Numbered from the stretch's first letter, positions 13,943 through 31,446 are shown. The stretch is 64,000 nt of DNA from Candidatus Hodarchaeota archaeon (GCA_016839815.1 JAEOTM010000032.1:66879-130878), one strand, 5' to 3'. Notes: generated by a model from the letters alone, not told the origin. A program made the numbers and translations.

Positions 13943-13943
13943 C

Positions 13944-14339
13944 TTAACTACCTCTTTCTTGCTTATAAGTGTGAATTTCATTATACCAGTTTTGAATGGA
14001 CATATGATAAGTAAAATATGTTTGAATCATTGATTCAATCATCTGTTCACCAGTAGTAGTAATAGTATATATTCTACGGGGCATACCTGGAGATTCTATG
14101 TCTTCAGCAATTATTGATGTAATTAAACCGTCGAGTTCCATTCGTTTGAGCAATGGATATACAGTCCCAGCCTTCAATGGAATTTTAGTCTCTCTAAGCA
14201 TCTTAATTAACCCATAACCATGCGCTTCTTCAGTATGTAAACGGATTAGTAACAAGATCATCAATTTTAATAATCCACGTCGTAAATCACGTTCCCAATT
14301 TTGGATAATAGTGGGAGCATCTCTGGAATCTGTGTCCAC
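13944..14339 (-). CDS. PadR family transcriptional regulator
   Basis: LRRGLL, HGYGLI, GTVYPLLKRME.DGLI and RRIY.IT..G motifs. Confidence 0.95.
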   Translation of the reverse strand: MDTDSRDAPTIIQNWERDLRRGLLKLMILLLIRLHTEEAHGYGLIKMLRETKIPLKAGTVYPLLKRMELDGLITSIIAEDIESPGMPRRIYTITTTGEQMIESMIQTYFTYHMSIQNWYNEIHTYKQERGS

Positions 14340-15571: not shown

Positions 15572-15919
15572 TTATAAAACTTTTTTGAGTTTTAGTAAAT
15601 CCACCATTTTACCCTTGATTTTTAGATCGCCTGCTGTAAAAGCACTCATGGCCTTAATTTCTTTATTGAGTACTCCGAGCCACGTTTTAGAGTCAGTTAT
15701 TAATAAAATGTCATACTTCTTTGATTTATCAATCGGTTCTTCTGTGAGTTCTCCAGGTAAACCAGCTGTTAAAGTGGTCGTCCACGTTTTATTAAACTCT
15801 TTAAAAGAAAAAGCAACGGTTTTGTTCCATTTCTTAAAGCGTTTTTTATTTTCTTCTTTAGAAAGCTTCCCTAGTACTTTATTTATCCCGTTCACTACTT
15901 GACCTTCCGTATCAGACAT
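15572..15919 (-). CDS. SCP2 sterol/lipid-binding domain protein
   Basis: AMSAFTAGDLKIKGKM..LLKL signature. Confidence 0.9.
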   Translation of the reverse strand: MSDTEGQVVNGINKVLGKLSKEENKKRFKKWNKTVAFSFKEFNKTWTTTLTAGLPGELTEEPIDKSKKYDILLITDSKTWLGVLNKEIKAMSAFTAGDLKIKGKMVDLLKLKKVL

Positions 15920-16002
15920 AATTCTACCAACTCATGGGTATTCGTTGAATTCAAGATATGCACTTTTATCTGTATCCAATGTGGGATCTAGAGGAAGTGG
16001 AG

Positions 16003-17310
16003 TTACGTGGCTTTGGCAACTTTTGCTGCAGCTCTAGCTTTCTTTTTTCGCGCTTTTTCACGTTTTAATGCAATGTCAAGTTTATTTTTTCGTGCTTGGA
16101 GTCCATAATGAATCCATAATCCAAACGCTCGATACCAAACGTGAGCGAATTTTCCGAAAGGGGCTAAGATCATTAGCTCCATTATGGTAATTACATGGAT
16201 AACAAAGAACCAATAACTCCAGATTGAGGGGATGGAGGTTAGATAGTATGTCAGTGTGATTAAAAATCCAGTTAACCCAACAAGAAATAGATTTGTTAGA
16301 AATAACCAATCACAAGTAAGACTATGACTTGCATAACGACTATTTTTCTGTACACGAGACCGCACAGCCATAACTACACCGATCATTAATGAAATCCCAC
16401 TAAAAATCCCCAATAAACGAATAGGGTGCGTAATCTCAACCAATTGATTGGCATCTGGTTTTAAAAACATATTCAAAGTTGTAGCTATACCTAAACCAAA
16501 GAAACCCCATAATATAAAGAGATGCATTAACCAACGGTTTCTAATAAATTGTGATTTAAATTCTGGACGGTGCGGGGGAAGTGCACACTCAAGCTGCCTG
16601 TATTGTAGAAAAACTTCTTTGAAGATTACTATAAATGCCTGTTTGGTCATGATAAACGGAGAAAATAGTAAATGGTAGGCGGTATTGAGCTTCAGATCAT
16701 TTCTTCGAGTCTTAAAAGCTGTTTTTACCCCGTTTCGTAGATTTGAATCATACTCCTTCGAAATTTGCCTATACATATTGAGGATAGATAATCCAATTAT
16801 AAGGAAAAGTACCCCTGCAATTGCTATCCCCACAATCTCGACAATTTCTTTCGACACAACGTCAAAAAGCCTAACTGGCCTTCCTTCAACAATTTTTTCA
16901 GGATTGCCTAGAAGGTTAAAGAGCACTATTGCAAAAAGAGCTACAAAACCCATAAGGAAGAACCCACCAAATCGGTTCTGGTTAATAATACGAGATAAAC
17001 CTGTAACTTCATATTGGCCCATCGCCCACCTTCGAGATGCCATTACAAACTCTCCAGGTTCTGCATCACGAGGACATGTATCAGAACAATCGTTACAATA
17101 TGAACATAACCACATCTGGTCACTTCCGAGAATCTTTTCCTTTAATCCTACACTCGCATAACGAATGAGATTTCGTGGAAAAGGATCCGCATCATCGGAT
17201 AAGGGACAAATTGCTGTGCAATTGCCACAATTAAAACATGCACTGACATTAAAATCACTGGTGGAATAATTCTTGATTTCGTCAATTAAATCTGGATCAA
17301 TAATGGTCAT
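16003..17310 (-). CDS. QmoC-like protein: HdrC-type 2x[4Fe-4S] domain fused to a cytochrome b-like membrane domain
   Basis: CFNCGNCTAICP and CSYCNDCSDTCP; about 6 TM helices with RWLMH..I.WGF and H...PFGKFAHVWYR. Confidence 0.88.
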   Translation of the reverse strand: MTIIDPDLIDEIKNYSTSDFNVSACFNCGNCTAICPLSDDADPFPRNLIRYASVGLKEKILGSDQMWLCSYCNDCSDTCPRDAEPGEFVMASRRWAMGQYEVTGLSRIINQNRFGGFFLMGFVALFAIVLFNLLGNPEKIVEGRPVRLFDVVSKEIVEIVGIAIAGVLFLIIGLSILNMYRQISKEYDSNLRNGVKTAFKTRRNDLKLNTAYHLLFSPFIMTKQAFIVIFKEVFLQYRQLECALPPHRPEFKSQFIRNRWLMHLFILWGFFGLGIATTLNMFLKPDANQLVEITHPIRLLGIFSGISLMIGVVMAVRSRVQKNSRYASHSLTCDWLFLTNLFLVGLTGFLITLTYYLTSIPSIWSYWFFVIHVITIMELMILAPFGKFAHVWYRAFGLWIHYGLQARKNKLDIALKREKARKKKARAAAKVAKAT

Positions 17311-17323
17311 TCATTCTCACATC

Positions 17324-17602
17324 CTATGAGGGGACTCTCGAAACAAGAGCCCACTTGTGATACTGTCCCTCACGATTAGATGTTTCTACAACAAGACTGT
17401 ACTTTCTCATACTGGTCAGATACCAATGAACGACATGCTTGGGCTGACCAATTTCTTCAGCAATTGCTGGAATAGTCTTTTCTTTTGAAGTATCAACATC
17501 ACTACCCAGTAAAGCTTTACGTATGTGATTCTTAATTACGCTGGCTTCAAGAACGCGATTAAAGCGATTCTGAAGTACATTTAGTGGTTTAGAATTACTC
17601 AT
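17324..17602 (-). CDS. Small winged-helix protein inside the hdr/qmo-like operon
   Basis: TIPAIAEEIG...VVHWYL..MRKY.LV helix-turn-helix pattern. Confidence 0.75.
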   Translation of the reverse strand: MSNSKPLNVLQNRFNRVLEASVIKNHIRKALLGSDVDTSKEKTIPAIAEEIGQPKHVVHWYLTSMRKYSLVVETSNREGQYHKWALVSRVPS

Positions 17603-19647
17603 ATGTCAACCTCCTGCACAAATCCATCAATCATACCTTCCAAAGCTGCTAATGAATACCCTTGAACATCAATTGCTCCTGGAGTGGGACACACTGCAAC
17701 ACAAGCACCACAACCTTTGCATAGTGCAGGATTTACTTGTGCACAAGAAACAATTTCATTATTGATAGTTGTTTCAACCATTTGTATTGCATCAAGATAT
17801 TCACATTCATTTACACATAGACCTGTCCCTGTACAAATCTCGGGTTTTACTTTAGCCACATAGGGTTCGAGTTCTGTAAATTCCTTACCCAAAATAATAG
17901 ATGCTTTGGAAGCTGCGGCAAGTGCTGCGGAAGTTGCTTCTGTAATATCAAAAGGTGCTTGAGCGGTGCCCGCTAGCATAATACCACTGTTAGCCACCTC
18001 AACAGGCCGTAATTTCGGATGTACTTCCAGAAGAAAACGATCAGCTCCAATAGGAAGATTGAGCTGTTCGGTTAGATTTTTTTGATCTTTCGCTACCATT
18101 CCTACTGCAAGAACAACTAAATCAACAGGAATCTCAATTTCTTCTCCGTAAGTTAAATCGTCCTTTACTTTCATATGGAGACGGTGCCCTTCTTCAGGTT
18201 TATAAACAGATGGTAAATCATTGGAAGTATATTTAAGAAAAATAGCTCCAGACTTGGAAGCAACCTCATAATAATCTTCTTCATGAAAACGACCATAAGT
18301 TCGCATATCACGATAAAGATTATACGTTTTTACGTGAGGAAAACGTTCTTTAAGTTCATTAACGGATTGAAGACTAGCAGTGCAACATACGCGAGAACAA
18401 TACTCGTTCAGTTCCCCATTGCAATTCTGACCAGGTTTAAAGTTCTTTCCAGCTTGTCTACTTCCCACACAGTGAATGAATCCAACCGATTTGATTGGAT
18501 GTCCATCCCACTCTAATTTCTCTTCAAATTCTCCGCTAGGGGCTGTCATTCGGATGAATTGGGGTAATGTGATTACATTTGGATATTCATTCCATCCATA
18601 TTCCCCTTCAAATGGAATATATGTATCAAAACCAGTGGCTAATATTATTACTCCTACGGTGATATCAGTAAATGTAGGATCAGCGGCTACTTGAAATCGA
18701 TTTGAATCATCAAGAGCTGCTTTACATTCTCCACAACTCGTACATGAATTCCAATCAATTGCGGGAGCTTGAGGATAATGACCTGGATGTGGACGGAGAA
18801 TTGCTTTTTGATCATACTCTCCGTTGGGGGTAAGTTCCCCATCAACAACTACAGGACAAGCATTCATTGCTATCCGAAGTTCTGCATCACTAATATGACC
18901 AACAATTCCTCGTGAAACATGTCTTTTCAGAGATAATTCAAAATTACCAATATAACCTTTAGCTTTATCAATTTGAGTATTTATATAAACAGTAATTAAT
19001 GGATGCTTAATAACCTCACTAATCAGAAGAGCTAAAGATTCACAGGCAACCTCATTTGTAGGAAAAATTCTATCTAATGATGCCATACGACCTCCTAAAT
19101 AGGGAGATCTTTCTATTAATTCCACAGCAAGACCAGAATCAGCTAGGTCTTTAGCTGCACGTAAACCAGAGACACCACCTCCAACAACAAGGACTCTTTT
19201 CGTTGTTTGAATCTTTATAGTTTCTAGTGGATCAAAATTAACTGCTTTATTGACTGCAGCACGAATCAGAGAGATGGCCTTTTCGGTTGCTTTCTCAGGA
19301 GTGTGAGGATGAGCCCACGAAACTTGTTCTCGGATATTGGCGTGTTCATAGAGAAATACATTCATTCCACCACGATCAGTAGCTCCTCGAAAGGTTGTTT
19401 CATGTAGTTTAGGGCTGCAAGATGCTACTACAACTCTATCTATTATACCATCTTGGATATCTTTTTCAATAAGTTCTTGTCCTGTTTTAGAACACATAAA
19501 CATATTACGACGGGATACAACAACTTTGGGGTCCTCCTCTAGAGCGTTACGAACCGTTTCTACATTTACAACATCACTTATATTTCCACCACAGTGACAA
19601 ATATAGACTCCTGCCCGCGGAAAGTCATTTTTTTCTTCATTGGTCAT
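17599..19647 (-). CDS. hdrA: HdrA-like flavo-iron-sulfur protein (N-terminal domain, FAD domain, C-terminal ferredoxin)
   Basis: CHCGGNI, ASCSP, GGGVSG, CVGSR, YCSRVCC, E.HPKLRPV and CKGCGACVAVCP motifs. Confidence 0.92.
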   Translation of the reverse strand: MTNEEKNDFPRAGVYICHCGGNISDVVNVETVRNALEEDPKVVVSRRNMFMCSKTGQELIEKDIQDGIIDRVVVASCSPKLHETTFRGATDRGGMNVFLYEHANIREQVSWAHPHTPEKATEKAISLIRAAVNKAVNFDPLETIKIQTTKRVLVVGGGVSGLRAAKDLADSGLAVELIERSPYLGGRMASLDRIFPTNEVACESLALLISEVIKHPLITVYINTQIDKAKGYIGNFELSLKRHVSRGIVGHISDAELRIAMNACPVVVDGELTPNGEYDQKAILRPHPGHYPQAPAIDWNSCTSCGECKAALDDSNRFQVAADPTFTDITVGVIILATGFDTYIPFEGEYGWNEYPNVITLPQFIRMTAPSGEFEEKLEWDGHPIKSVGFIHCVGSRQAGKNFKPGQNCNGELNEYCSRVCCTASLQSVNELKERFPHVKTYNLYRDMRTYGRFHEEDYYEVASKSGAIFLKYTSNDLPSVYKPEEGHRLHMKVKDDLTYGEEIEIPVDLVVLAVGMVAKDQKNLTEQLNLPIGADRFLLEVHPKLRPVEVANSGIMLAGTAQAPFDITEATSAALAAASKASIILGKEFTELEPYVAKVKPEICTGTGLCVNECEYLDAIQMVETTINNEIVSCAQVNPALCKGCGACVAVCPTPGAIDVQGYSLAALEGMIDGFVQEVDI

Positions 19648-19649
19648 AT

Positions 19650-21050
19650 TTAGCTCTCCGAATTAGCCTCTTCGGCCGTAACAGGAACAATAGTGGATTC
19701 CAAAGATGAAAATTCAGTTCGTTCTTTGTGTTTAGCTTTTAGAAATTTTACAACCTTCATGCTAGCTGCGGAACCCTCTACAATTGTATCAACAATATCT
19801 TTGGGGCCCATAGCAGTTCCAGCACCAAATACACCTTCCAAACTGGTCAAAACAGGATTAAGTTTAAGGTCGACAGCTTCAATAAATCCATCTTTATCAA
19901 CCTCAACTGGAAAATGACTCGTAGCACACGAGGCTTGGGTTAATCCCAGACTTAACACTACCATGTCATACTCTTCTTTTGATTTACCACCATTACTACC
20001 AATATTTTCGATAGAAAGAATCAAATTATTAGTTTCAGGATCCTCTTGAATATCTCCAACCTTACCTTTGATAAATTCAACACCCATAGCTTTGGCATTC
20101 TCAAAAAATTGCTCGTAACCCTTACCAAATGCGCGAATATCCATGTAATAACAAGTAACTTGTACAATCGGCAACGCACCAGTAATCAGGATCGCCTGTT
20201 TTATTGTATACATGCAACAAACTCGACTGCAGTAAGTACGATCTAATGAAGCATCACGGGAACCAGCACAATGAATGTATGCAATATGCATTGGAACTCG
20301 ACCATCTGATGGACGACGAATTCCACCGTAAGGCCCATTCGGGGCAAGAAGTCGCTCAGCAGTCATTGAAGAAATAACATTTTGAAATTCGCCACCACCC
20401 CACTCTTTCTTTTCACCCACAGGGGTTAGCTCAAATCCAGTAGCTAATACAACTGACTCAGCTTCTACCTGAACCTGTTCATCTTTTTGAAAATAATCAA
20501 CCGCGTCTGCTGGGCAAATTCGAGAACAACCAAGACAAGCAATACAATGTTGCATATCGATTAACGCTACTTGGGGAAGAGCAGTTTGGAATGGAATGTA
20601 AATTGCCTTCCGTGTTCCAATACCCATTTCAAATTCGGAGGGAACATCGACTGGACACTGAAATTCGCACTGACGACAACCTGTACACTTTTCAACATCT
20701 ATAAAGCGAGCTTTCTTTTTGATATCAACTACAAAATTACCTTTTTCATTTTTATGATACCCAGTCACTTCCGAATATGTCCAAGAATCGATCTTCTTGT
20801 GGTGGGAAGTGCTACTCATCTTGGGAGTGGTAATACAACTCGCGCAATCAAGAGTAGGAAACACTTTTGAAAGTTGGATCATTTTACCGCCGATACTGGG
20901 TTCTTTATCCACCACAAGCACATCATAATCTTGATCCGCAAGATCTAATGCCGTTTGTAAACCAGCAATTCCCCCACCTATAACTAAAGTAGAATAGATT
21001 GTCTCTTCTTCGTCTTTAATCATCACTAGTTCCTCCATGGGTTTACCCAT
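19650..21050 (-). CDS. hdrA: Short HdrA-like flavo-iron-sulfur protein (FAD domain plus inserted ferredoxin)
   Basis: GGGIAG, FPTLDCASC, two CxxCxxCxxxCP, CAGSR, YCSRVCCMY.IK and GPKDI motifs. Confidence 0.92.
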   Translation of the reverse strand: MGKPMEELVMIKDEEETIYSTLVIGGGIAGLQTALDLADQDYDVLVVDKEPSIGGKMIQLSKVFPTLDCASCITTPKMSSTSHHKKIDSWTYSEVTGYHKNEKGNFVVDIKKKARFIDVEKCTGCRQCEFQCPVDVPSEFEMGIGTRKAIYIPFQTALPQVALIDMQHCIACLGCSRICPADAVDYFQKDEQVQVEAESVVLATGFELTPVGEKKEWGGGEFQNVISSMTAERLLAPNGPYGGIRRPSDGRVPMHIAYIHCAGSRDASLDRTYCSRVCCMYTIKQAILITGALPIVQVTCYYMDIRAFGKGYEQFFENAKAMGVEFIKGKVGDIQEDPETNNLILSIENIGSNGGKSKEEYDMVVLSLGLTQASCATSHFPVEVDKDGFIEAVDLKLNPVLTSLEGVFGAGTAMGPKDIVDTIVEGSAASMKVVKFLKAKHKERTEFSSLESTIVPVTAEEANSES

Positions 21051-21501
21051 TCGCTTCTACTGCTACAGACGAAGGTGATTTATTCAAAATGTCTTTAGCA
21101 GGTTGAAGACTCCGTAAATACTCATCCATTTCCTTGATTTCCTTTACAACATGTTTTGCACAAACAGTACATATTGCAGTCAATTTTAAACGCTTAGATT
21201 CTAAACCGTACTCATGCTTCATTCGTTTCATCACTTTGTTAACTCGTAAGCTAAGACGCTTGAATGCACCAGAATAAGGACATTCCTCACCACAGGACAT
21301 GATGATTATACCATCAATTCCCTTACGAAAAGAATCAATATAGAATTCTTCAGGAAAAATGACCGGAGAGGGAACGCGCATTACATATGAATTTGGCGGA
21401 TACTCCAAATGTTGTTGTCCTGCATTATCCACCCCAGGATATGAACACATGATTGTAGTCAAAACAAGGATTTTTGGAGTATATTCAACTGTCGCAGACA
21501 T
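21043..21501 (-). CDS. mvhD: MvhD/FlpD-type [2Fe-2S] subunit
   Basis: CSYPGVD.AG...LEYP, GIDGIIIMSC...CPY and ICTVC motifs. ATG at 21501 preferred. Confidence 0.88.
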   Translation of the reverse strand: MSATVEYTPKILVLTTIMCSYPGVDNAGQQHLEYPPNSYVMRVPSPVIFPEEFYIDSFRKGIDGIIIMSCGEECPYSGAFKRLSLRVNKVMKRMKHEYGLESKRLKLTAICTVCAKHVVKEIKEMDEYLRSLQPAKDILNKSPSSVAVEANG

Positions 21502-21535
21502 GGAACGTTTTCCAACCAAAAAGAATTTATTAAAA

Positions 21536-21802
21536 TTATTTCTTCCTGATCACGTAAAAACGATCGTATCCATCATCTTCTACGAAACCAAGATACTGAT
21601 GTTTGGCAAAATTAGCCCATGCAGGGATATCTTCACGTGTACCGGGGTCGGAAGACCAAATTTCCAAAACTTCATCAATATCTACTTTACCGACTGCTTT
21701 CTTGGTTTCAAGTAGTGGGCCAGGACAAGCAGATCCACGTGCATCTACAATATGATCTGATTCTTCAGGGACTTCATTACCCAAATCTGTTTCTTCACTC
21801 AT
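21536..21802 (-). CDS. tusA: TusA family sulfur carrier
   Basis: DARGSACPGP and SDPG...DIPAW motifs. Confidence 0.93.
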   Translation of the reverse strand: MSEETDLGNEVPEESDHIVDARGSACPGPLLETKKAVGKVDIDEVLEIWSSDPGTREDIPAWANFAKHQYLGFVEDDGYDRFYVIRKK

Positions 21803-22063
21803 TTTTTTAACCACTTTTTTACTAATTAGTTTTATCTACAGATAACTTTTCAAGAGGATATTTAACGATTGGTTTAACAATTGTAAATTATGATATGAAA
21901 TGCTATAACATATATAAATATGAATAACAAAAATACTCATTTAATTTATATAGCATAGATCAAAATGTAGAAAACCATATAAACTTTTTACGAAAAAGAG
22001 ATTTTTGAAAAGCTTCGATCACAAAAATTCGCTTAAATCAAGTTTACAAGTGGAAGATCTAGA

Positions 22064-22600
22064 ATGTTTAGTCGTGATCAAATTAAACGGTTGTTTGAAC
22101 TCAGTAAAGACCAAATTGTAGACGAAACCGATTTCTACATCGTTTGTCTATTAGAACATCATGGAGAAAAAAAAGTACCAGAAATCGTTGAAGCTCTAGA
22201 GGAAGAGGGAATCCACCTAAAACCTGTTTCTGTCACCCGTCGCATTAAACGTTTAAAAGAAAAAGGTGTATTAGTAAAGATGGTTCCTTTAAGCCGTCTT
22301 TGGAAACTTGGATTCTCCCGAGATCTACTTCTTATGATTCAAACTGAACCTGGTAGAGATATTGACAAAATAATTGATCAAATAACTCCTATTGAAGGAG
22401 TGAAGCGGTTATATCAGATTTTTGGTGAATATGACTTGCTAGTAGAATTATGTTGTCTAGGAGATGAAGGACTGCAGGAAAGTCTCGCAGCTATTAATTG
22501 TGTACCTGGTTTGTCTCGAATATCGAAATCTCCTATTCAACATCGAATCAAAGAACATTACTACAATCTACAAGAAAATAAGGAAGAACTAACAGTCTAG
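22064..22600 (+). CDS. Lrp/AsnC family regulator
   Basis: HTH (VTRRIKRLKEKGVL) plus RAM domain (FGEYDLL). Confidence 0.9.
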   Translation: MFSRDQIKRLFELSKDQIVDETDFYIVCLLEHHGEKKVPEIVEALEEEGIHLKPVSVTRRIKRLKEKGVLVKMVPLSRLWKLGFSRDLLLMIQTEPGRDIDKIIDQITPIEGVKRLYQIFGEYDLLVELCCLGDEGLQESLAAINCVPGLSRISKSPIQHRIKEHYYNLQENKEELTV

Positions 22601-22683
22601 GGGTTGGTAAATTCTAATTACTTCATCGAAAAACAACTCCAGAAAAATCCCCCTAGTATCAAAAAAGGAAAGTTGAAAAAAAA

Positions 22684-23040
22684 ATGGTAAAATTCGTAAT
22701 TGTCTCCACTCATGGAAATGACAACTTTGAACGAGCAAGTATGGCTTGGGCAGTAGCAAACGCTGCACATGTGTTAGATGCAGAGGTTATGATGTTTTTA
22801 CAAGCTGAAGGCGTTAATGTAGTCCGAAAGGATTTCTGTAAAGGTTGGGTATTCCCTCCATTCACTCCTCTCGAGGATTTGATTAAAAATTTCATGGAAA
22901 TGGGTGGTCAGGTATATGCATGTGTTCCTTGTGTTGAAGCCAGGGAGATTAAACAGGAAGATTATATTGAAGGTGTAAAGCTCGCTGGTGCTACTAAACT
23001 TCTGGCTGAGTCAGTGGATGCCAAAGTCTTCACCTACTAA
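22684..23040 (+). CDS. DsrE family sulfurtransferase
   Basis: FLQAEGV and YACVPC...R motifs. Confidence 0.9.
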   Translation: MVKFVIVSTHGNDNFERASMAWAVANAAHVLDAEVMMFLQAEGVNVVRKDFCKGWVFPPFTPLEDLIKNFMEMGGQVYACVPCVEAREIKQEDYIEGVKLAGATKLLAESVDAKVFTY

Positions 23041-23050
23041 ACAACACTCA

Positions 23051-24169
23051 CTAGACTTCATCTAATAGCGTTTTTGTAAAATCCACGAAACTTCCATTGT
23101 CCTGGATGTGTTCCATTTCCTTACTCTGGAGAACTGGATCCCAGTTCTTCCATCCTCTATTTTGTGCTTCTCTGAGATTTCGTAATGCTTTGTCTACCTC
23201 ATACTGAGTAGCATAGGATCGAGCAGCCAATACATAAACCCATATAGGAACTTTACCTAGTTTAAAAGCTCGCTCAAAATCCTCTATTGCTTTTCCATAC
23301 TGACTCTGATAGAAATATCTCATTCCTTTCTCTGCATAGTGTTCTGCCTCATCAAACATGCATATATAGTGAACATAATCACGTTCTTTCGTAAAACCTA
23401 CTTTTTCTGCAACAGCTATTGAACCATAATTGAGATTATCACAATGCCAGCCTACTGTTTTAAACCCTATAGATAGACAATGATCAATAGTTGCTGCCGC
23501 GGTAAGTGCCCCTAAACCTTTCATTCGATAAGATGCTGTTGTGATTATTCCGATTTCACATTCATCCCCACTCTCACAATCAGCATTAATCCAGACAACC
23601 ACTTTATTTCTGTGAACTAAACACTTTCCAAAGCCCATTCTAACTTGATCTTCCAAATTTGATTCAATCCACTCTTGAATGTCATCAGGAAATTCAAAGG
23701 ATTCGGTAGCAAAAGTTGAATCAATTTGATGAAGATCATAGCCGTTAGGGATTTTGTTTTTCCATTCAAGTGAAATTTTGTTGCAGGAAAAGTGAATCCG
23801 ATGAGAGGGGAGAGGAGTTCTAATATCAAATATCTCTGGGAAAGTTTTTCTCCATTCATCGCTGTCTATATGAAAGAAAAGGTATGAAAGAAAGTTTGGA
23901 TTGACAGGAGAGTAAAACTGTTTTTTTAGAATCATATCTTGAATTAAGACCTTAAGTCCCTGATTAAACTCCTCATTATGTGAATTTCCAGCCAGAAACC
24001 AACCCTCGGTTGAAGCCATGAAGCCACTCGTAGGATTATCACTATCATTGACCCAAATTTTCCCCTGGGAAGGCCCTTCGATTACAGCTCTAACTACTAC
24101 TTGATAATCAAATCCCTTGAATAAAACTCTTGTATTAGGGTAAAACTGTCTTTTCAGTTCGTGGAATAT
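23051..24169 (-). CDS. GNAT acetyltransferase with C-terminal TPR; probable ATA start
   Basis: EIGI.T...YRMKGLG and N.GS..VAEKVGF motifs. The frame stays open 50 codons upstream of ATG 24019, reaching ATA 24169 behind SD AAAGGTG. Confidence 0.85.
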   Translation of the reverse strand: MFHELKRQFYPNTRVLFKGFDYQVVVRAVIEGPSQGKIWVNDSDNPTSGFMASTEGWFLAGNSHNEEFNQGLKVLIQDMILKKQFYSPVNPNFLSYLFFHIDSDEWRKTFPEIFDIRTPLPSHRIHFSCNKISLEWKNKIPNGYDLHQIDSTFATESFEFPDDIQEWIESNLEDQVRMGFGKCLVHRNKVVVWINADCESGDECEIGIITTASYRMKGLGALTAAATIDHCLSIGFKTVGWHCDNLNYGSIAVAEKVGFTKERDYVHYICMFDEAEHYAEKGMRYFYQSQYGKAIEDFERAFKLGKVPIWVYVLAARSYATQYEVDKALRNLREAQNRGWKNWDPVLQSKEMEHIQDNGSFVDFTKTLLDEV

Positions 24170-24412
24170 GGTACAACACCTTTAGAAGTTAATTTTCGTA
24201 TCTCTTCTAAAATGAATTTATAAAACTATGTCATACGGCAAGAACTCATTTACAGAAGACTTATAAGATTATTCAACTAGTTTCTAGCAACAGTTTGTAG
24301 TACAGACCGTTAAGATATTATTAAAAATGAAAAAAGGAGGAGATCATCTATCCTGATCAATGAGATTATTGCTTTGCTTCAGCTTGTATCTGAGAAATAA
24401 CACCGCTTGTAA

Positions 24413-24820
24413 TTAGCTATAACAATACGTGCCCAACAGTAGTAATGCTTGAACACCAGCCAATGAGAGATGTCCAATGATATCGTTCAATGGTAAAAAT
24501 TGTGCTACAAATAACACCCAAAATATTCCCAAAATTAACCCTATTTTTATGAATACACCTTGATTGAGAATTAAGTATCCCATTACTACTTCTAATACCA
24601 CAATTAAGAGTATGACTAACTTTTCATTGGGAATAATGAGTTTTTCTAAAAATTCTCTTTGGATCGGAAGACGTGTATTTTCTAAGCAAACGGCCCATAA
24701 ATATTCGGTATTATTGATTGTATGAAACAAATTAAAAACTGCTGAAATTAAGTAAAACAATCCTAATAGAACCCGACTCACAGTTAATATAGTTACGATT
24801 TCACCTTCAAACAAGGACAA
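24413..24820 (-). CDS. DoxX-like 4-TM membrane protein
   Basis: RVLLGLFY...A..N and VVLEV.MG.LIL motifs. Confidence 0.65.
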   Translation of the reverse strand: MSLFEGEIVTILTVSRVLLGLFYLISAVFNLFHTINNTEYLWAVCLENTRLPIQREFLEKLIIPNEKLVILLIVVLEVVMGYLILNQGVFIKIGLILGIFWVLFVAQFLPLNDIIGHLSLAGVQALLLLGTYCYS

Positions 24821-25121
24821 ACTATCAATCCTTCAATATACCGTTAATTAAAGGCTTTAATGATAGGATTTTAAGAATTTCTTCATGAGATCAGCTTGAA
24901 AATGTGAAAGATTGATTCTTATCAACCCTAATCATATTGGAATGCTATTCGGATAGATGTAGTCCATATTAGTTTATAAAGTTCGCGTGTACGCTGAATG
25001 GTACTGTTTACACCTGGTTTCACTTGAATTAATGCGATTTTAGTTTCAACATTGTATACATTTTACCAGAAACAATTTTGAGTTTAAAAGAAAAAAAAGA
25101 AGAATCAAAGATTCTTGATTA

Positions 25122-25685
25122 TTAATCGTGACTGATCGCTTTTTTCTGTATCAGAGAAATAACCCCACAAGCACCACAGCGGTTCTGACAAGAATGATCA
25201 TCGAAAAGTTGCTTTACAGAGTTTGGATGATTGAATAACCAGAAGGGTTTGTCAGCAAATCCTTCTGTTTCTTTAACGAAGAAGCTATTCCGTCTTTTTA
25301 CTCCTGGAAGATGACTAAGGGGAAAAGTATCGATAAATTTACTAATTTTCTCCCTCGAATCAGCTACTAAACAGATAACAAGATTATACTCAAAACCTGA
25401 AACAGAGAACATCGCGGTAACCAAAGGACAATCTTGGAAATATTCCAAGATTGCTTGTTCAGTATCGGGATTTGTTATTTCAATAAAGGATAGAGCATGA
25501 CTAAATTTGAGCTGTGTGATATTAATTCCAATACCTGGAGAAATCAGATTTTTTTCCTCAAGATCATCAAATCTCGCTTTAATAGTTCCTTTAGCATAGC
25601 TTAAGTCTTTTGCAGCTTGATTAAAAGAACAACGTGGATGCTTTTGAAAATAATCAATAATTTTCTTGTCTTTTTCGTCTATCAT
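25122..25685 (-). CDS. Lrp/AsnC family regulator with C-terminal Cys cluster
   Basis: IDEKDKKII HTH, SGFEYNL RAM domain, C-terminal CQNRCGAC. Confidence 0.9.
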   Translation of the reverse strand: MIDEKDKKIIDYFQKHPRCSFNQAAKDLSYAKGTIKARFDDLEEKNLISPGIGINITQLKFSHALSFIEITNPDTEQAILEYFQDCPLVTAMFSVSGFEYNLVICLVADSREKISKFIDTFPLSHLPGVKRRNSFFVKETEGFADKPFWLFNHPNSVKQLFDDHSCQNRCGACGVISLIQKKAISHD

Positions 25686-25725
25686 GCTCTAGAAACCTCT
25701 ATTTATAACGTTCCCATTTTTTCTC

Positions 25726-26898
25726 TCACATTCGACCTGATAGGAATCCATAGAAATATAGAAACCGTTGGTACTTCTTAAAATAATAGAATAACCGATT
25801 TGAGATATAACCCAAACCAAAGGGAGGACGATTGTAATTAAAATCGAAAAACATAGCGGAAGTTAGGGAAGTCATCACTAAACAGGTTGCGTGTCCATTA
25901 TATTTCTCTTTAACCTCAGAAATATCAATCTTTCCTTTGAGTACATCAACTAGGTTATGAGCTACCGCCATAGCCTGATAGTGGGCTGAAGAACCCGCTT
26001 TAGATACAGGTAGGTTTGCAGTATCACCAAGAGCGAAAATAAAGGGAAATTCCTCATTTTGAAGAGTTTTTGTATTCACATTCACCCAACCAGATTCATC
26101 TGCGATCGGACTACCCTGGAGGTAAAGCTGCCCCGTATGAGGGGGAACCATAAGAAGAAGATCATATTCAATTTCATCACCTTCAAGTGATTCAACTACC
26201 TTCTTATCAGCATGAATTGTTTCTGTATTGAAGAAAGTATGTAAATTAATGTTTTTCTTGGCAAATTTCTTCTCTATATGAACATTCGCCTTTTCAATTG
26301 AAAAAGCACCACCAATCGGGCTCAAGTAATGTAAATTCGTTTTATTACGTAATTTTTTTCGTCTTAGGAAATGTTCCATCATAAATATTCCTTCGAGAGG
26401 AGCAACAGGACATTTGAAGGGGAGATCGGCAATACCAACAACAACATTCCCGCCTGTACCCTTTTCTACAAAATCATCAAGGCTTTTGCGTAATTCATGA
26501 ATTCCTTCTTCGTTATAATAATGATTAGCGCCTTCTTTGAAGCCAGGAACACTATCATAGTCATAATGAGCTCCTGTAGCAATAACTAGATAGTCGAAGG
26601 AAAGATTGTTTCCACTAGCAAAGGAAACAGATTTGTTCTCAATATCTAAGCCAGTAACCTCTTCCTTAAGTATGTTAACTCGCTTATTAACGACTTTTCG
26701 AACTGGTTTATACATAGAATTCAGTGATTTCTTATCAAAGATCCTAAAAGGTAGATCCGCCTCATAAAAAACATTATCTTGTTTTGAGACTAATGTAACG
26801 TCAGCTTGTTTTTTAGCTTTACGTCCTAGAAGGTTTGCAACAATTACTCCTCCAGTACCTCCTCCTAGTATAACAACTTTGGCTTTTTCTTGACTCAT
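25726..26898 (-). CDS. sqr: Sulfide:quinone oxidoreductase-like flavoprotein (type III-like)
   Basis: GGGTGG, FKCPVAPLE, VPPH, ALGD...P.SKAGS and YNGHATC motifs. Confidence 0.85.
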   Translation of the reverse strand: MSQEKAKVVILGGGTGGVIVANLLGRKAKKQADVTLVSKQDNVFYEADLPFRIFDKKSLNSMYKPVRKVVNKRVNILKEEVTGLDIENKSVSFASGNNLSFDYLVIATGAHYDYDSVPGFKEGANHYYNEEGIHELRKSLDDFVEKGTGGNVVVGIADLPFKCPVAPLEGIFMMEHFLRRKKLRNKTNLHYLSPIGGAFSIEKANVHIEKKFAKKNINLHTFFNTETIHADKKVVESLEGDEIEYDLLLMVPPHTGQLYLQGSPIADESGWVNVNTKTLQNEEFPFIFALGDTANLPVSKAGSSAHYQAMAVAHNLVDVLKGKIDISEVKEKYNGHATCLVMTSLTSAMFFDFNYNRPPFGLGYISNRLFYYFKKYQRFLYFYGFLSGRM

Positions 26899-26929
26899 AT
26901 GATCACCAAAAAAATAGGAATAAGGAAAA

Positions 26930-27172
26930 CTATCGTGCTTTCCTTACTTGAAATCTTGTGTACCCGTTTTCTTCAACAACGGCTACCATCTCATGTTTAG
27001 CTTTCTCAACCCACTTAGGGATGTCTTTTATTGAGCCTGCGTCTTTAGACCAGACTTCGTATACTTTCCCAGTCTCTCCTTTTTTGATGGATTTAATCAA
27101 TTCCATTAAGGGACCTGGACAAAAAGCATTTCTTGCATCCATAACTTTGTCTGCTTGTACTTCATTACTCAT
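26930..27172 (-). CDS. tusA: TusA family sulfur carrier
   Basis: DARNAFCPGP and D.GS..DIPKW motifs. Confidence 0.93.
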   Translation of the reverse strand: MSNEVQADKVMDARNAFCPGPLMELIKSIKKGETGKVYEVWSKDAGSIKDIPKWVEKAKHEMVAVVEENGYTRFQVRKAR

Positions 27173-27200
27173 ATTAATACACCTTTTGTTAAAATTTAAT

Positions 27201-27611
27201 TTAAAGAAACATTACCCGATCAGCAAGCATTGCCTCTTCAGCAAGAGTATTGACTCCTGCGATTTTATCAACCATAGGAAGAAGATCTTCTTTTTCTAAT
27301 CCTAAGATTTCTGTGATTTGAACACAGGCTACAATTGTTACTTCTCCCAGATCTTTCAAATCTTCGAGCAGCTCTTTCCAATGCAGCAAATTTCCAGCCT
27401 TTCTTGCCTGATTGACTTTTTCTACCACTTCAGGGTAGATACTAGTGACATCTGGTTCAGGAGGAGCATCCTTTTTCAAGGCATAAACCGCATCGTGCAT
27501 GAAGAAAATAAGTACTTCATGGTCACTGGTTACCGCTCCAGATGCTATAATTGCTAAGGTCTGCAGTTTATCAGTAGCCGCAGAATCACAAACCATAAGA
27601 AATTTTCCCAT
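27201..27611 (-). CDS. DsrE/DsrF-like (DrsE_2) family protein
   Basis: IFFMHDAV and IVAC motifs. Confidence 0.85.
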   Translation of the reverse strand: MGKFLMVCDSAATDKLQTLAIIASGAVTSDHEVLIFFMHDAVYALKKDAPPEPDVTSIYPEVVEKVNQARKAGNLLHWKELLEDLKDLGEVTIVACVQITEILGLEKEDLLPMVDKIAGVNTLAEEAMLADRVMFL

Positions 27612-27645
27612 CTAACTCACCTAGAAAAAATAAGAAAAGAGAAAA

Positions 27646-28134
27646 TTACATGAAAAGGGTGATATCAGCATCTTTCGCAAATTCAAGGAATGTTGCTGCA
27701 CCACCAGTCTCGACACCATCAATAATATCGGATTTTTTAATGCCCATGACATCCTGGGTCATCTGACAGGCGATCATACGAACTCCACCTTCAATACAGG
27801 CTTCACGGAGTTCCTCAAATTTTGCGACATTAGCCTTTTTCATCCAGCTTTTCATCATCATCGTCGCAATCCGGGTCATTCCAGGCAACATTCCCATCCA
27901 ATTTGGAACGGGTATTAGTCCGAATGCTTTCGGTGCTGCAGGATTAGCTATGGGGCTAACTTTGAGGTCCTTACTACGTTTTTTGTGAATTAGATCGAAA
28001 CCATAGAATGTAAAGAAAATCGCGACTTCCATATCCATGGCCACACCTGTTGAAGCTAGGAGAACAGGGGGATAAGCTGCATCAAGAGTTCCTTGGGATG
28101 CAATAATTGCCATACGTTTAGGTTTTTCACTCAT
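27646..28134 (-). CDS. DsrE2/YrkE-like sulfur carrier
   Basis: GTLD.AYPP, IFFTFYG, IACQMT and GGAATFL motifs. Confidence 0.92.
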   Translation of the reverse strand: MSEKPKRMAIIASQGTLDAAYPPVLLASTGVAMDMEVAIFFTFYGFDLIHKKRSKDLKVSPIANPAAPKAFGLIPVPNWMGMLPGMTRIATMMMKSWMKKANVAKFEELREACIEGGVRMIACQMTQDVMGIKKSDIIDGVETGGAATFLEFAKDADITLFM

Positions 28135-28147
28135 AATGTCGCATCCT

Positions 28148-28384
28148 TTACTTCATTCGTTTGACTAAATATCGATAATCTTTTGGACCTAACTCTTCAG
28201 AAGAAAGAAGATCTTGTCCAGTGGTACGTGTCCAAGCAGGAATATCAGCCATACTTCCAGGGTCAGTTGATAGTATTTCTAAAATTTGACCGATTTCCAT
28301 TTCTTTCAAAGCTTTCTTTGATTTTAGAACTGGCATTGGGCAACTCAAGCCGCGCGCATCTAAGGTTTTATGTACTTGACTCAT
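28148..28384 (-). CDS. tusA: TusA family sulfur carrier
   Basis: LDARGLSCPMP and TDPGS..DIPAW motifs. ATG 28384 with SD-like AAGGA is preferred over TTG 28510. Confidence 0.93.
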   Translation of the reverse strand: MSQVHKTLDARGLSCPMPVLKSKKALKEMEIGQILEILSTDPGSMADIPAWTRTTGQDLLSSEELGPKDYRYLVKRMK

Positions 28385-28560
28385 ATTATTTTCATCCTTA
28401 AGTGTTTGATTAAGTGTTTCTTTGTTATTACCATTATTTGTAGTGAATAGTTCCAAAATCTTTGAATCTTTGGCTAGGAATTCCGAACTAAGGATGGTTT
28501 GAGGTTTCAAACCACCGTTTGGATTGTTAAGAGTGGTTATGTGCGTTGAAACTATTCAAT
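28385..28560 (-). ncRNA. Putative structured cis-regulatory 5' leader of the tusA-dsrE-sqr operon
   Basis: 13-bp closing helix (28546-28558 with 28444-28456), alternative internal hairpins and an anti-SD octamer. Starts about 25 nt downstream of the TATA box. Confidence 0.5.
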
Positions 28561-29178: not shown

Positions 29179-31446
29179 ATGACCAAGGAACTAAAATCAC
29201 TTTTAATTTTGTTTGTTTTAATTCTTCTACTACCAAACATAAGGTATACATCTGAAAAAAACCAATTAAAAATCATTCAAACTGATCTTTCCTCAAGAAT
29301 TGCAGAAAATGTCTTATATAATACAACACTTACAGTTACAGCTCCATTAGGATATTCTATGCTTGAATCCACTCCAATTATACTTAATTTATCCCTTTTA
29401 GCAAGTGCTCTCCCACCATCTGTTGATCCATTTGGATTAGATACCCCTGATTCTTCTGATGATATTAAGTGGAATGCTGCATTTGTCACCTATGAGGATT
29501 CACTAATTCCATCTCAAGTAGATGATGTAGATACTATCCCTGGATATTCAGAAAAAGATGAATTATTATTTGCATTACCAGATTCAGTAAACCTAGCTAG
29601 TGGAGAAAGTAGTTCGTTTTCCATCTATTTCAGTCAAAAAGATCTCAATCTACCTCCCCCATATTTTCCAGAAGTCTGTAGTATCACTCCTTATTCAAAA
29701 CTCGAAGAAATTGATGACCTCTGGCCTGAACTAATCGACCCTGATGATGGTGCCTACTATATTGGTAATGAAATCGTTCAAGGAGCCGTTTTAAGATCCG
29801 CTGCATGGTCATCAGGAGCTATTTATGAATTATCTTTGCTAGATGACCAAGGAGAGTCACGATTTGATATCATAAAGGAGAAATTCCCTTTCCCATCAGA
29901 AATTTGGAAATGGTCACGATTTGCTCGAATTGAAGAGTTTACCTCACAAAATCAGTATGCAACTCACCCTTATCCAGGTAAACTGATCAATCTAATACCT
30001 GGCCCGATTCGCGCCCGAATTACGGTACAAAGTACTCAACCTTATACATTTAATAAATACGGAGAACCTGGAGACCAACTAGATATTTATGGGGTTTATA
30101 CTTACAGTGTCTATGCCAATCAAACCTACTTCGATTATTCAATAGATATTACGGGTTCTGAAGCAAACACTTCATCTGTGCTTCCTCTTGAGTATCAAAA
30201 CCGGGAGTGGGGTGGTGGTAGACCCGGTACATATTATAAAGGTATCTATGTTCCTGGATATACTGAAGATGAAGGTTATGGTGAAGGATGGGTTATGCGA
30301 GCGCCAGAGGATATTGATATGCATAGTATCGACACAAGCGATTTCTCCTCCCCATGGTATCTCGAAGCGTTATTAGAGGGAACAACAATCACTCCTTCCT
30401 CCTGGGAACAACCAGATGATGATAAGCTTGGTTATGGCTTTATTTTTGAAGATAGAGGTTTCAATAATATCTCCTGGAGTGCCTCAACTGAAGGAGTAAA
30501 GAACTTATATCATGGTGCTCAATTCCCATTGAAAACAAGATATCATCCATTCGATGCTGATGTTCTTGGTGGCCAAGACAAAATTGCCTTCATGGAAGAC
30601 AGATATGATGAATTTATTAAACCACGGCCCACTCTTACTTTTAGTAGCTCTATTATTTCAGTGGCGGAGTTACCCTTTGACTCTCTCCTCATAAGTACAC
30701 CAAAAGCCTCCCTCGACTTTGATAATCATCTCTTAGATGTTGAAAACATTACCGCGTTTGCTACCGACGTGGCAGAATTTGTTAGTGATGCTAATGCTAC
30801 TAAAGCCGCTTATCAGTTACTTCATTTTGATAATAACTCTGAAACGGGAATTACGGGGAATTTATCCTGGAATAATATTTCACAAACGTGGGAGGTAGAA
30901 AATATCGATGTATCTTCTCTAAATCTTCACAATTCTTTTGTAGTAGTTGTTGAAATGGAAACTTCCACTTTAAGTGCAAAAAGTCCTCCTTCAGACTGTA
31001 TTAGTGTTGGTGAAGATATATACCCGCCAACCATAACGGCAATAGTTCAGAATCCTTCTGAAAACATTCGTTATACAGATCCTGTAGAAATCACTTGTCA
31101 GGTTTCAGATGAAAGTGGAATTTCAAAGGTAATTTTACGCTACCATAATGACAGTTGGATTGATGTTCCTATGGTTCTAGAAGCAGGGAAGTTCATTGGA
31201 TCTATCCCTCCCCATTCAGGTGGAACAATGATTGAATATGAAATAAAGGCACTAGATAATTCTGATCGAGAAAATTCGGTTAGTACCGTTACTTTTAACT
31301 ATACCGTTGAAACAGATGTGGAATCCTCGACTACTAGATCATCCGTCCCAACTTCTACTGTAGATACCAAGATATCTTCTGGATTCACCTTTATTGGAGT
31401 CCTAATTTTAATCTGTGTCGGTTTAAGTTGGAAAAAGAGAAGGTAA
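29179..31446 (+). CDS. Secreted, C-terminally anchored surface protein (DUF4861-like N-terminal region, Ig-like domains)
   Basis: Signal peptide; PSQVDD.D...DELLF and GPIRA motifs; Ser/Thr linker, SGF, TM helix, KKRR. Confidence 0.75.
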   Translation: MTKELKSLLILFVLILLLPNIRYTSEKNQLKIIQTDLSSRIAENVLYNTTLTVTAPLGYSMLESTPIILNLSLLASALPPSVDPFGLDTPDSSDDIKWNAAFVTYEDSLIPSQVDDVDTIPGYSEKDELLFALPDSVNLASGESSSFSIYFSQKDLNLPPPYFPEVCSITPYSKLEEIDDLWPELIDPDDGAYYIGNEIVQGAVLRSAAWSSGAIYELSLLDDQGESRFDIIKEKFPFPSEIWKWSRFARIEEFTSQNQYATHPYPGKLINLIPGPIRARITVQSTQPYTFNKYGEPGDQLDIYGVYTYSVYANQTYFDYSIDITGSEANTSSVLPLEYQNREWGGGRPGTYYKGIYVPGYTEDEGYGEGWVMRAPEDIDMHSIDTSDFSSPWYLEALLEGTTITPSSWEQPDDDKLGYGFIFEDRGFNNISWSASTEGVKNLYHGAQFPLKTRYHPFDADVLGGQDKIAFMEDRYDEFIKPRPTLTFSSSIISVAELPFDSLLISTPKASLDFDNHLLDVENITAFATDVAEFVSDANATKAAYQLLHFDNNSETGITGNLSWNNISQTWEVENIDVSSLNLHNSFVVVVEMETSTLSAKSPPSDCISVGEDIYPPTITAIVQNPSENIRYTDPVEITCQVSDESGISKVILRYHNDSWIDVPMVLEAGKFIGSIPPHSGGTMIEYEIKALDNSDRENSVSTVTFNYTVETDVESSTTRSSVPTSTVDTKISSGFTFIGVLILICVGLSWKKRR

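Follow-up and report, generated by a model that had tools for sequence, protein, structure and literature searches.

A TusA-linked, Qmo-like membrane complex beside a sulfide:quinone oxidoreductase relay in a Hodarchaeota archaeon: a candidate for electron exchange between carrier-bound sulfane sulfur and quinone

Background

What reaction might be carried out by a membrane-bound complex of the Hdr type that is encoded with sulfur carriers and without HdrB? The question is raised by a stretch of 64,000 nucleotides from Candidatus Hodarchaeota archaeon (GCA_016839815.1 JAEOTM010000032.1:66879-130878), the whole of which is called the window here. Between positions 15,572 and 28,384, two operons form a sulfur island. 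Operon A encodes the sulfur carrier TusA and a complex resembling QmoABC, with two HdrA-like flavoproteins and a QmoC-like membrane subunit, and operon B encodes sulfide:quinone oxidoreductase (SQR) together with TusA and DsrE-type carriers. A preliminary description had read the island as one distinct system of a probable Asgard archaeon, coupling protein-bound persulfide or polysulfide to the quinone pool. The computational analysis reported here points, with a probability of roughly 55%, to a self-contained HdrA/"type II Qmo" membrane complex that exchanges electrons between carrier-bound sulfane sulfur and quinone, operon B being a separate module.

Spread and conservation of the TusA-linked core

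Operon A lies on the minus strand (21814-15572) in the order TusA, MvhD-like, HdrA 466, HdrA 682, the small winged-helix protein s92, QmoC-like and SCP2. The intergenic spacing is -8 to +16 nt from TusA to the QmoC-like gene and 83 nt from there to SCP2. When one genome per prokaryote species was scanned, 80 loci of the family were obtained. The hosts belong to Chloroflexota, Planctomycetota, Bacteroidota, Acidobacteriota, Desulfomonilaceae, Syntrophales, NC10, Actinomycetota, Spirochaetia, Ignavibacteria, Thermoplasmata, Bathyarchaeia and Nitrososphaeria. Of the 63 loci whose upstream DNA is long enough, 59 have the five-gene core TusA-MvhD-HdrA-HdrA-QmoC, and a DsrE-type gene is found as well in 43 of the 59. 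DsrE homologues are placed directly 3' of the QmoC-like gene in many loci, DsrE2-DsrE-TusA stand immediately before the complex in genome G044, and TusA-SQR-TusA-DsrE2-DsrE and the complex form a single cluster in genome G015. The linkage of sulfur carriers to the hdrA pair is thus conserved well beyond Asgard archaea, and given the synteny kept in other genomes the gene arrangement is not a product of chance. An Asgard-specific system is contradicted by the wide distribution of the family in bacterial and archaeal phyla.

In the phylum of the window genome, a near-full-length QmoC-like gene was found in 18 of 400 genomes, the window genome included. The core order is seen in 12 of the 15 Asgard loci fetched, the other 3 being cut by contig ends. 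The nearest QmoC-like homologues (60-87% identity) come from metagenome-assembled genomes of Hodarchaeales/Promethearchaeota, and for this reason the Asgard assignment of the window holds.

TusA1, the first gene of the core, is also its best-conserved component, with a median identity of 55% across 61 loci. The active-site cysteines of the carriers (TusA Cys30, DsrE Cys80 and DsrE2 Cys123) are invariant. Clustering of the neighbouring open reading frames (ORFs) of 95 related loci revealed no Apr, Sat, Dsr or HdrB families among the recurrent neighbours. ArsR-type regulators were found upstream in 17 loci (15 bacterial, 2 archaeal), and by our reading most of them have two cysteines placed as in SqrR/BigR; LysR regulators are another recurrent neighbour. 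Additionally, an HdrL-type NAD(P)H module is located beside the cluster in 9 loci (mostly Bacteroidota, with 2 in Actinomycetota), and the hydrogenase gene MvhG is located beside it in Nitrososphaeria and Bathyarchaeia. A second, divergent subtype of the cluster was observed in the same genus (L061, G071:C1:50000-69900), with the order DsrE-like, TusA, MvhD-like, HdrA, HdrA, winged-helix and QmoC. The distance from this cluster to cydAB is 2.5 kb, and the genes after it are a 276-aa ArsR-like gene, fumarase and aconitase.

Subunits of the Qmo-like complex

The 682-aa HdrA-like protein was aligned to the solved HdrA 5odc_A along its full length (E 6e-137), and the 466-aa protein to residues 145-561 of the same structure, comprising the flavin adenine dinucleotide (FAD) part and the inserted ferredoxin part (E 5e-118). 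Their bit scores to HdrA in the PDB, 461 and 398, compare with about 150 for Apr-linked QmoB and about 200 for Apr-linked QmoA. Cysteines were surveyed in 85 and 63 family members. The larger protein keeps the cysteines for the N-terminal, FAD-domain and C-terminal ferredoxin clusters and has a degenerate inserted ferredoxin domain. In the smaller one, conservation is 95-100% for the two CxxCxxCxxxCP motifs and for DCxxC. The full set of HdrA cluster cysteines, with FAD, is accordingly divided between two complementary paralogues.

The N-terminus of the QmoC-like protein matches HdrC (E 2e-13 to the PDB HdrC), and the membrane part of its structural model (predicted local distance difference test, pLDDT, 87) matches NarI with Z 11.2 and mycobacterial EtfD with Z 11.1; for this model and that of the winged-helix protein, Foldseek alone gave weak E-values only. 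In the family alignment His263, His372 and His390 are invariant. Residue 158, at the fourth of the His haem-ligand positions expected in a NarI-like dihaem helix bundle, is Glu in the genus-level clade of the window, His in 82% of the family, and Gln or Tyr in Apr-linked QmoC. The missing fourth His was considered as a sign of haem loss and is not decisive, as type I QmoC also has no His at this position. Selenocysteine in the QmoC of G059 was also considered and rejected, its TGA being a plain stop codon.

Two smaller proteins complete the operon. The predicted fold of s92 is an ArsR/SmtB-like winged helix-turn-helix (pLDDT 88), and neither a Pfam match nor a conserved Cys was found in it. 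Its family comprises 529 clusters at 50% identity (E<=1e-3), of which the best 150 listed are 69-192 aa long. Its start overlaps the stop of the 682-aa hdrA by 4 nt, and it is a family-specific member of the cluster. SCP2, seen with the complex at genus level only, is adjacent in G062 and 7 kb off in G059.

Distinction from canonical Qmo, Hdr and sHdr

The genome that contains the window is 89.5% complete with 7.8% contamination. In this genome aprA, dsrA and sat were not found, and no aprA match exceeded 36 bits (cut-off 642). Among 50 host genomes of the family, 41 are without aprA and 39 without dsrA. Moreover, five sulfate-reducer-like genomes carry the TusA-linked paralogue together with a separate aprBA-qmoABC locus, and the identity to Apr-linked Qmo proteins is 24-33% (25-29% in the comparison made for QmoB and QmoC). 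In the QmoC tree, a separate clade with full (100%) support unites four of the five Apr-linked QmoC sequences. These findings show that the TusA-linked complex is a paralogue of Apr-linked QmoABC. A canonical QmoABC serving an adenosine 5'-phosphosulfate reductase encoded elsewhere would share the subunit logic of QmoA, QmoB and QmoC, and the fifth Apr-linked QmoC (Acidobacteria, G449) does nest inside the TusA-linked family. Nevertheless, the missing aprA, sat and dsrA and the genomes carrying both versions make this explanation extremely improbable, and it was rejected for the window genome unless aprBA and sat sit in the unassembled 10% or so. The distinction from Apr-linked Qmo and from HdrABC/sHdr drawn in the preliminary description is upheld.

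On the contig of the window no match to CCG/HdrB, GcvH/LbpA, AprA, DsrA or Sat was found, as had been described within the window for hdrB, lbpA, aprAB, sat and dsrAB, and the window contains no LbpA, lipoate-maturation genes or sHdrB1/B2. A search of the whole genome for aprAB, hdrB and lbpA, proposed earlier as a check, came out differently for its parts: aprA is missing, but hdrB is present elsewhere in a soluble Mvh-HdrABC cluster. In all, 19 CCG-domain matches were found in the genome, 0 of them on the window's contig. Two syntenic copies of the soluble cluster are located on contigs C25 (8000-25763, L015) and C189 (16500-36000, L016). In both, TusA-YeeE/YedE-ArsR (258 aa) stand beside HdrB-HdrC-HdrA(MvhD-fused)-MvhA-MvhG-HycI, and farther on MvhD-HdrL(1040 aa)-HdrCB-HdrB-HdrC and a divergent GcvH-like gene are found. 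The copies may be paralogues, strain variants or contamination (7.8%). The presence of hdrB elsewhere does not make operon A a canonical Hdr.

Four GcvH-type genes exist in the genome, all outside the window, and the two examined adjoin cytochrome c maturation genes, not lipoate ligases. An sHdr system made up of the C25/C189 cluster and its nearby GcvH-like gene was rejected, since this GcvH adjoins cytochrome c maturation genes, no lipoate ligase accompanies it, and the HdrA is not sHdrA-like.

The divergent MvhD-like protein and its CxxC

The MvhD-like protein has the Pfam FlpD fold and matches the solved MvhD 9sw2_D with E 2e-12. The canonical cysteine pattern of MvhD is CxxC...C...CxxxC, of which the window protein retains 3 of 5 positions; in the TusA-linked family these positions are kept patchily (0-71%). 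The only cysteines invariant across the family are those of a C-terminal CxxC, which 49 of 52 members possess; it is seen in none of the 9 canonical MvhD sequences aligned and is absent from 9sw2_D. The comparison set comprised the genome's own MvhD proteins, the HdrA-fused MvhD domain, the C-terminal domains of Apr-linked QmoB, hydrogenase-linked homologues and 9sw2_D. This CxxC is the sole family-specific cysteine feature of the Qmo-like complex, and a non-canonical MvhD-like protein carrying it is a new observation of this work. The hydrogenase-linked variants of Nitrososphaeria have a canonical MvhD without CxxC; therefore, the CxxC form is associated with the absence of a hydrogenase gene next to the MvhD-like gene. 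From its sequence, the motif is a candidate site of thiol or persulfide exchange, and together with the invariant carrier cysteines it offers direct targets for mutation. Eight of the 52 members possess at most 3 cysteines, so that some hold too few for canonical cluster binding.

The conservation of carriers and CxxC bears on a different explanation, in which the complex serves general flavin-based redox balancing: electrons from a donor would enter through the MvhD-like protein and reach quinone and ferredoxin, sulfur would not be a substrate, and TusA/DsrE would act in regulation, maturation or unrelated sulfur trafficking. The full electron-transfer architecture of HdrA, in which quinone takes the high-potential role of HdrB, the NAD(P)H or hydrogenase input modules of some variants, and the lack of a recognisable sulfur-active site are compatible with such a role. 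It leaves unaccounted for that TusA is the best-conserved part and the first gene in nearly all informative loci, most of them with a DsrE-type gene, that the carrier cysteines are invariant, that many loci have persulfide-sensor-type ArsR regulators, and that the hydrogenase-linked Nitrososphaeria variants are the ones with the canonical MvhD. Redox balancing without sulfur is therefore considered improbable.

The SQR relay as a separable module

Operon B (minus strand, 28384-25122; TusA-DsrE2-DsrE-TusA-SQR-Lrp) is 4 kb apart from operon A. The best PDB match of its SQR-like protein is human SQOR (E 2e-45, residues 7-383), type I, type V and FCSD enzymes scoring far weaker, and its cysteines are found in KCPVAP and GHATC motifs. 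With its FAD fold, two predicted catalytic cysteines and closest similarity to SQOR-type enzymes among solved structures, it appears to be type II-like. SQR homologues were found in 51 of the 83 genomes of the class. TusA is directly upstream of SQR in 18 of 19 relatives' loci (L157-L175). The 10 loci of the same genus all have the full order TusA-DsrE2-DsrE-TusA-SQR-Lrp over the extent of the flanking DNA, which in the shortest case ends within TusA2, and most loci of other families keep the relay and SQR without Lrp. The Lrp1-DsrE pair adjoins the SQR operon in G063 and G076. In family f4, SQR is present in 26 of 31 genomes with almost no terminal oxidase, cytochrome bd being found in 1 of 31 and COX1 in 0 of 31.

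The Qmo-like cluster is present in 12 genomes of the class. Of these, 8 have SQR, compared with 51 of 83 overall, so no enrichment is seen, and a correlation between SQR and the complex across the class was discarded. The complex occurs without SQR in G059 and G044, and the SQR operon occurs without a full QmoC-like gene in G063, G074 and G075. The island is thus two separable modules that occur independently in relatives, and not the single system suggested at the outset. SQR and the complex seem to draw on the carriers as a common hub, each independently of the other, and the two modules of the window genome probably share one carrier pool.

The independence of the relay is also of importance for another explanation, namely that TusA, DsrE and SQR mainly serve the soluble Mvh-HdrABC in the hydrogen-dependent reduction of imported thiosulfate or sulfane sulfur, the Qmo-like complex being only loosely related. 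The TusA-YeeE/YedE-ArsR trio adjoins HdrB-HdrC-HdrA(MvhD)-MvhA-MvhG on both C25 and C189, and the SQR relay is present in many genomes without the Qmo-like cluster. Exactly such chemistry, with TusA/DsrE persulfides and soluble Hdr, was proposed for H2-dependent thiosulfate/sulfane sulfur reduction in a preprint on Nerearchaeum, another Asgard archaeon (10.1101/2025.07.22.663070). The explanation seems quite improbable, because it does not account for TusA1 and DsrE as fixed parts of the Qmo-like operon across phyla, nor for the DsrE2-DsrE-TusA genes directly before the complex in G044.

Proposed function and direction of the complex

The fixed thiol-based carriers, the CxxC protein and an architecture with quinone at the place of HdrB together suggest a two-electron exchange between persulfide and quinone. 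The two complementary HdrA-like flavoproteins would form a heterodimer, connected with the QmoC-like subunit, in which the HdrC-like iron-sulfur domain would lead to the NarI-type cytochrome b and so to the quinone pool. Quinone would thereby occupy the place that HdrB has in HdrABC, the HdrC-like clusters leading to the haem b domain instead. TusA, DsrE, the winged-helix protein and the divergent MvhD-like protein would be dedicated partners. A persulfide on TusA/DsrE would be converted into thiol and sulfide, or the reverse, in exchange with quinone, for which the CxxC of the MvhD-like protein is the likely site. As the 466-aa HdrA has kept its ferredoxin-type branch intact, ferredoxin may be a third partner. 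In operon B, the type II-like SQR would oxidise sulfide and might load the TusA/DsrE2/DsrE relay. The substrate, the catalytic site, the involvement of ferredoxin and the direction are what we infer here.

The redox potentials are approximately -270 mV for S0/HS-, -75 mV for menaquinone and -450 mV for ferredoxin. As the first is near the mean of the other two, the reaction would be near equilibrium and reversible. The complex might even be a reversible, flavin-based bifurcating sulfide/persulfide:quinone+ferredoxin oxidoreductase, in which TusA/DsrE-bound sulfur is the mid-potential couple and the CxxC of a repurposed MvhD the catalytic thiol site; this more specific form of the proposal is speculative and rather unlikely. 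For the persulfide:quinone exchange as such, the direction narrowly favoured would be net sulfane sulfur reduction under anoxia, whether as electron sink or for detoxification, with the reverse occurring when cytochrome bd or a heme-copper oxidase drains quinol. Cytochrome bd and COX1 are present in the window genome, so a quinol sink exists, and a terminal oxidase is encoded in 10 of the 12 cluster-carrying genomes of the class, none being found in G015 and G059.

These oxidases are also the basis for a purely oxidative role, in which sulfide or carrier persulfide would be oxidised with quinone, and perhaps ferredoxin, as acceptor, downstream of or parallel to SQR under microoxic conditions with cytochrome bd/Cox as sink. 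The complex adjoins the SQR-relay operon in the window and is united with it in G015, and the G071 cluster is close to cydAB. As known from sHdr systems, TusA/DsrE2/DsrE3 sets are a hallmark of cytoplasmic sulfur oxidation (PMC11094781), and an Hdr/TusA/rhodanese cluster of Cloacimonadota was interpreted as oxidative (PMC8542988). Against this stand the missing route past the sulfane level, with no dsrA, aprA or sat in the genome, a cluster without HdrB/LbpA-type chemistry, and an SQR that already performs the two-electron step. G015 and G059, moreover, possess the cluster with no terminal oxidase found. Most of the bacterial hosts (Anaerolineae, Bacteroidales, Spirochaetia and similar lineages) are generally regarded as anaerobic fermenters. 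An exclusively oxidative function is considered unlikely.

Several points weigh against the exchange of electrons between carrier-bound sulfane sulfur and quinone proposed here. Neither an HdrB/CCG-type nor any other recognised sulfur-active catalytic site was found in the Qmo-like cluster. The HdrA-like subunits have no family-specific cysteines among the members surveyed, all conserved ones being canonical HdrA cluster positions, and the CxxC of the MvhD-like protein could be a replacement iron-sulfur cluster ligand. Since the presence of SQR is not correlated with that of the complex, their adjacency here may be incidental, and Mvh-HdrABC with its own TusA-YeeE-ArsR is a second plausible partner of the relay. 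MqnA was not found in the genome, in which other routes of quinone synthesis were not searched. Finally, the evidence on direction is divided: the set of carriers is like the one found in sulfur oxidisers, but the variants linked to NAD(P)H or hydrogenase speak for reduction, as do the anaerobic hosts.

Comparison with known systems

Among described systems, the family is closest to the "type II" QmoABC reported in Vulcanisaeta moutnovskia and Ammonifex degensii, whose QmoAB is near HdrA, which occurs with or without Apr/Dsr, and whose function was stated to be unclear (Neukirchen et al. 2023, PMC10504309; DiSCo, PMC8477390). As in that type, both flavoprotein subunits are far nearer HdrA than bacterial QmoAB, and QmoC consists of an HdrC domain and a membrane cytochrome b. 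The fixed partners TusA, DsrE, MvhD-like with CxxC and winged-helix protein are a difference from type II as published, being unmentioned in the readable papers. We infer that the family overlaps with type II Qmo and fits its description, in a tree that does not include the V. moutnovskia and A. degensii reference sequences. In full-text literature searches, with subscription-only papers outside their scope, no description of the TusA-MvhD-HdrA-HdrA-QmoC cluster, its TusA/DsrE linkage or a functional test was found. What the window contributes is the setting in an Asgard genome, the type II-like SQR relay next to the complex, and the CxxC of the MvhD-like protein.

With type I QmoABC of sulfate reducers and Chlorobi, the complex shares two HdrA-derived flavoproteins and a quinone-interacting iron-sulfur/cytochrome b membrane subunit. 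In type I, however, MvhD is a C-terminal domain of QmoB, whereas it is a separate, divergent gene here; type I QmoB has lost the N-terminal HdrA cluster, which is kept here; and type I is partnered by AprAB (and Sat). The HdrABC-MvhAGD of methanogens (PDB 5odc, 8rvu, 7bkb) is similar in HdrA architecture and cluster ligands, in the HdrC-type domain and in the MvhD-type fold. Unlike that complex, the one described here has no HdrB and thus no non-cubane catalytic clusters, its HdrA is split into two complementary paralogues, its HdrC is fused to a membrane cytochrome b, its MvhD has a new CxxC, and its operon is without a hydrogenase gene.

The sHdr-LbpA systems (Koch & Dahl 2018, PMC6067878; Tanabe et al. 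2024, PMC11094781), and dsrE3A-dsrE2B-tusA of Metallosphaera, have the same kinds of carriers beside an Hdr-type complex. They differ in that sHdrB1/B2, LbpA and lipoate-maturation genes are missing from the present cluster, its HdrA is of the full-size, iron-sulfur-rich type, and the complex is bound to the membrane through the QmoC-like subunit. As in type II SQR and mitochondrial SQOR pathways, SQR in operon B is encoded with sulfurtransferase-type acceptors. The staphylococcal cst operon is an example of a type II SQR pathway. The acceptors here differ in being stand-alone TusA, DsrE2 and DsrE, and no persulfide dioxygenase or rhodanese is present in the island.

Implications

If carrier-bound sulfane sulfur is processed by this complex, the sulfur cycle in the cytoplasm of numerous uncultured anaerobes would be supplied with a missing enzyme, the hosts including Anaerolineae, Bacteroidales, Planctomycetota, Acidobacteriota, Bathyarchaeia and Thermoplasmata, and the puzzling type II Qmo would gain a function. 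The bifurcating form, if true, would be a new route by which anaerobes, including archaeal relatives of eukaryotes, obtain reduced ferredoxin from sulfide or respire sulfane sulfur. Hodarchaeales combine the complex with an adjacent mitochondrial-type SQR and with a respiratory chain linked to quinone, which bears on hydrogen/sulfur syntrophy models of eukaryote origin.

Gene layout of the window

As seen in Table 1, all 15 genes claimed for the island were found intact and closely packed. Pfam scans of both strands agree with the earlier list of three transcription units and with its tally of 3 TusA, 3 DsrE-type proteins and 1 SQR. The ORF of TusA3 is open up to a TTG at 28510, the ATG at 28384 being the likelier start.

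Table 1. Genes of the sulfur island, in window coordinates
Feature	Position	Strand	Evidence and remarks
SCP2-fold protein	15572..15919	-	Pfam SCP2 E 2e-12; possibly last gene of operon A
QmoC-like, 435 aa	16003..17310	-	Pfam 2x[4Fe-4S] and weak NarI match
Small winged-helix protein s92, 92 aa	17324..17602	-	No Pfam match; predicted fold
HdrA-like, 682 aa (QmoB-like, without fused MvhD domain)	17599..19647	-	PDB HdrA 5odc_A
HdrA-like, 466 aa (QmoA-like); FAD domain and inserted two-cluster ferredoxin domain	19650..21050	-	PDB HdrA 5odc_A
MvhD-like, C-terminal CxxC (C117, C120)	21043..21519	-	Pfam FlpD E 4e-21
TusA1, complex-linked sulfur carrier, CPxP cysteine	21536..21814	-	Pfam TusA E 1e-20
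Lrp/AsnC-type regulator (Lrp1), divergent from operon A	22064..22600	+	Pfam AsnC_trans_reg
DsrE-type carrier, active-site Cys80	22684..23040	+	Pfam DsrE E 1e-14
Lrp/AsnC-type regulator, Cys-rich tail, last gene of SQR operon	25122..25685	-	Pfam HTH_24/AsnC
SQR-like flavoprotein	25726..26898	-	Pfam Pyr_redox_2 and FCSD_central; PDB SQOR E 2e-45
TusA2, directly upstream of SQR	26930..27172	-	Pfam TusA E 6e-19
DsrE-type carrier (DsrE3-like)	27201..27611	-	Pfam DsrE
DsrE2 (Cys123)	27646..28134	-	Pfam DrsE_2 E 1e-47
TusA3, first gene of SQR-relay operon	28148..28384	-	Pfam TusA E 7e-25, residues 48-118 of long ORF

The genes on either side of the island have no sulfur connection. Three large ORFs flanking it are without a Pfam match: 29179-31446 (755 aa), 11777-13981 (734 aa) and 9028-10593 (521 aa). 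Between the sulfur modules, a GNAT-TPR protein (23051-24019) and a 135-aa hydrophobic protein without a Pfam match (24413-24820), by sequence probably membrane-bound, are encoded. Both genes are missing in G063 and G076, where Lrp1-DsrE abuts the SQR operon, and they therefore look like insertions.

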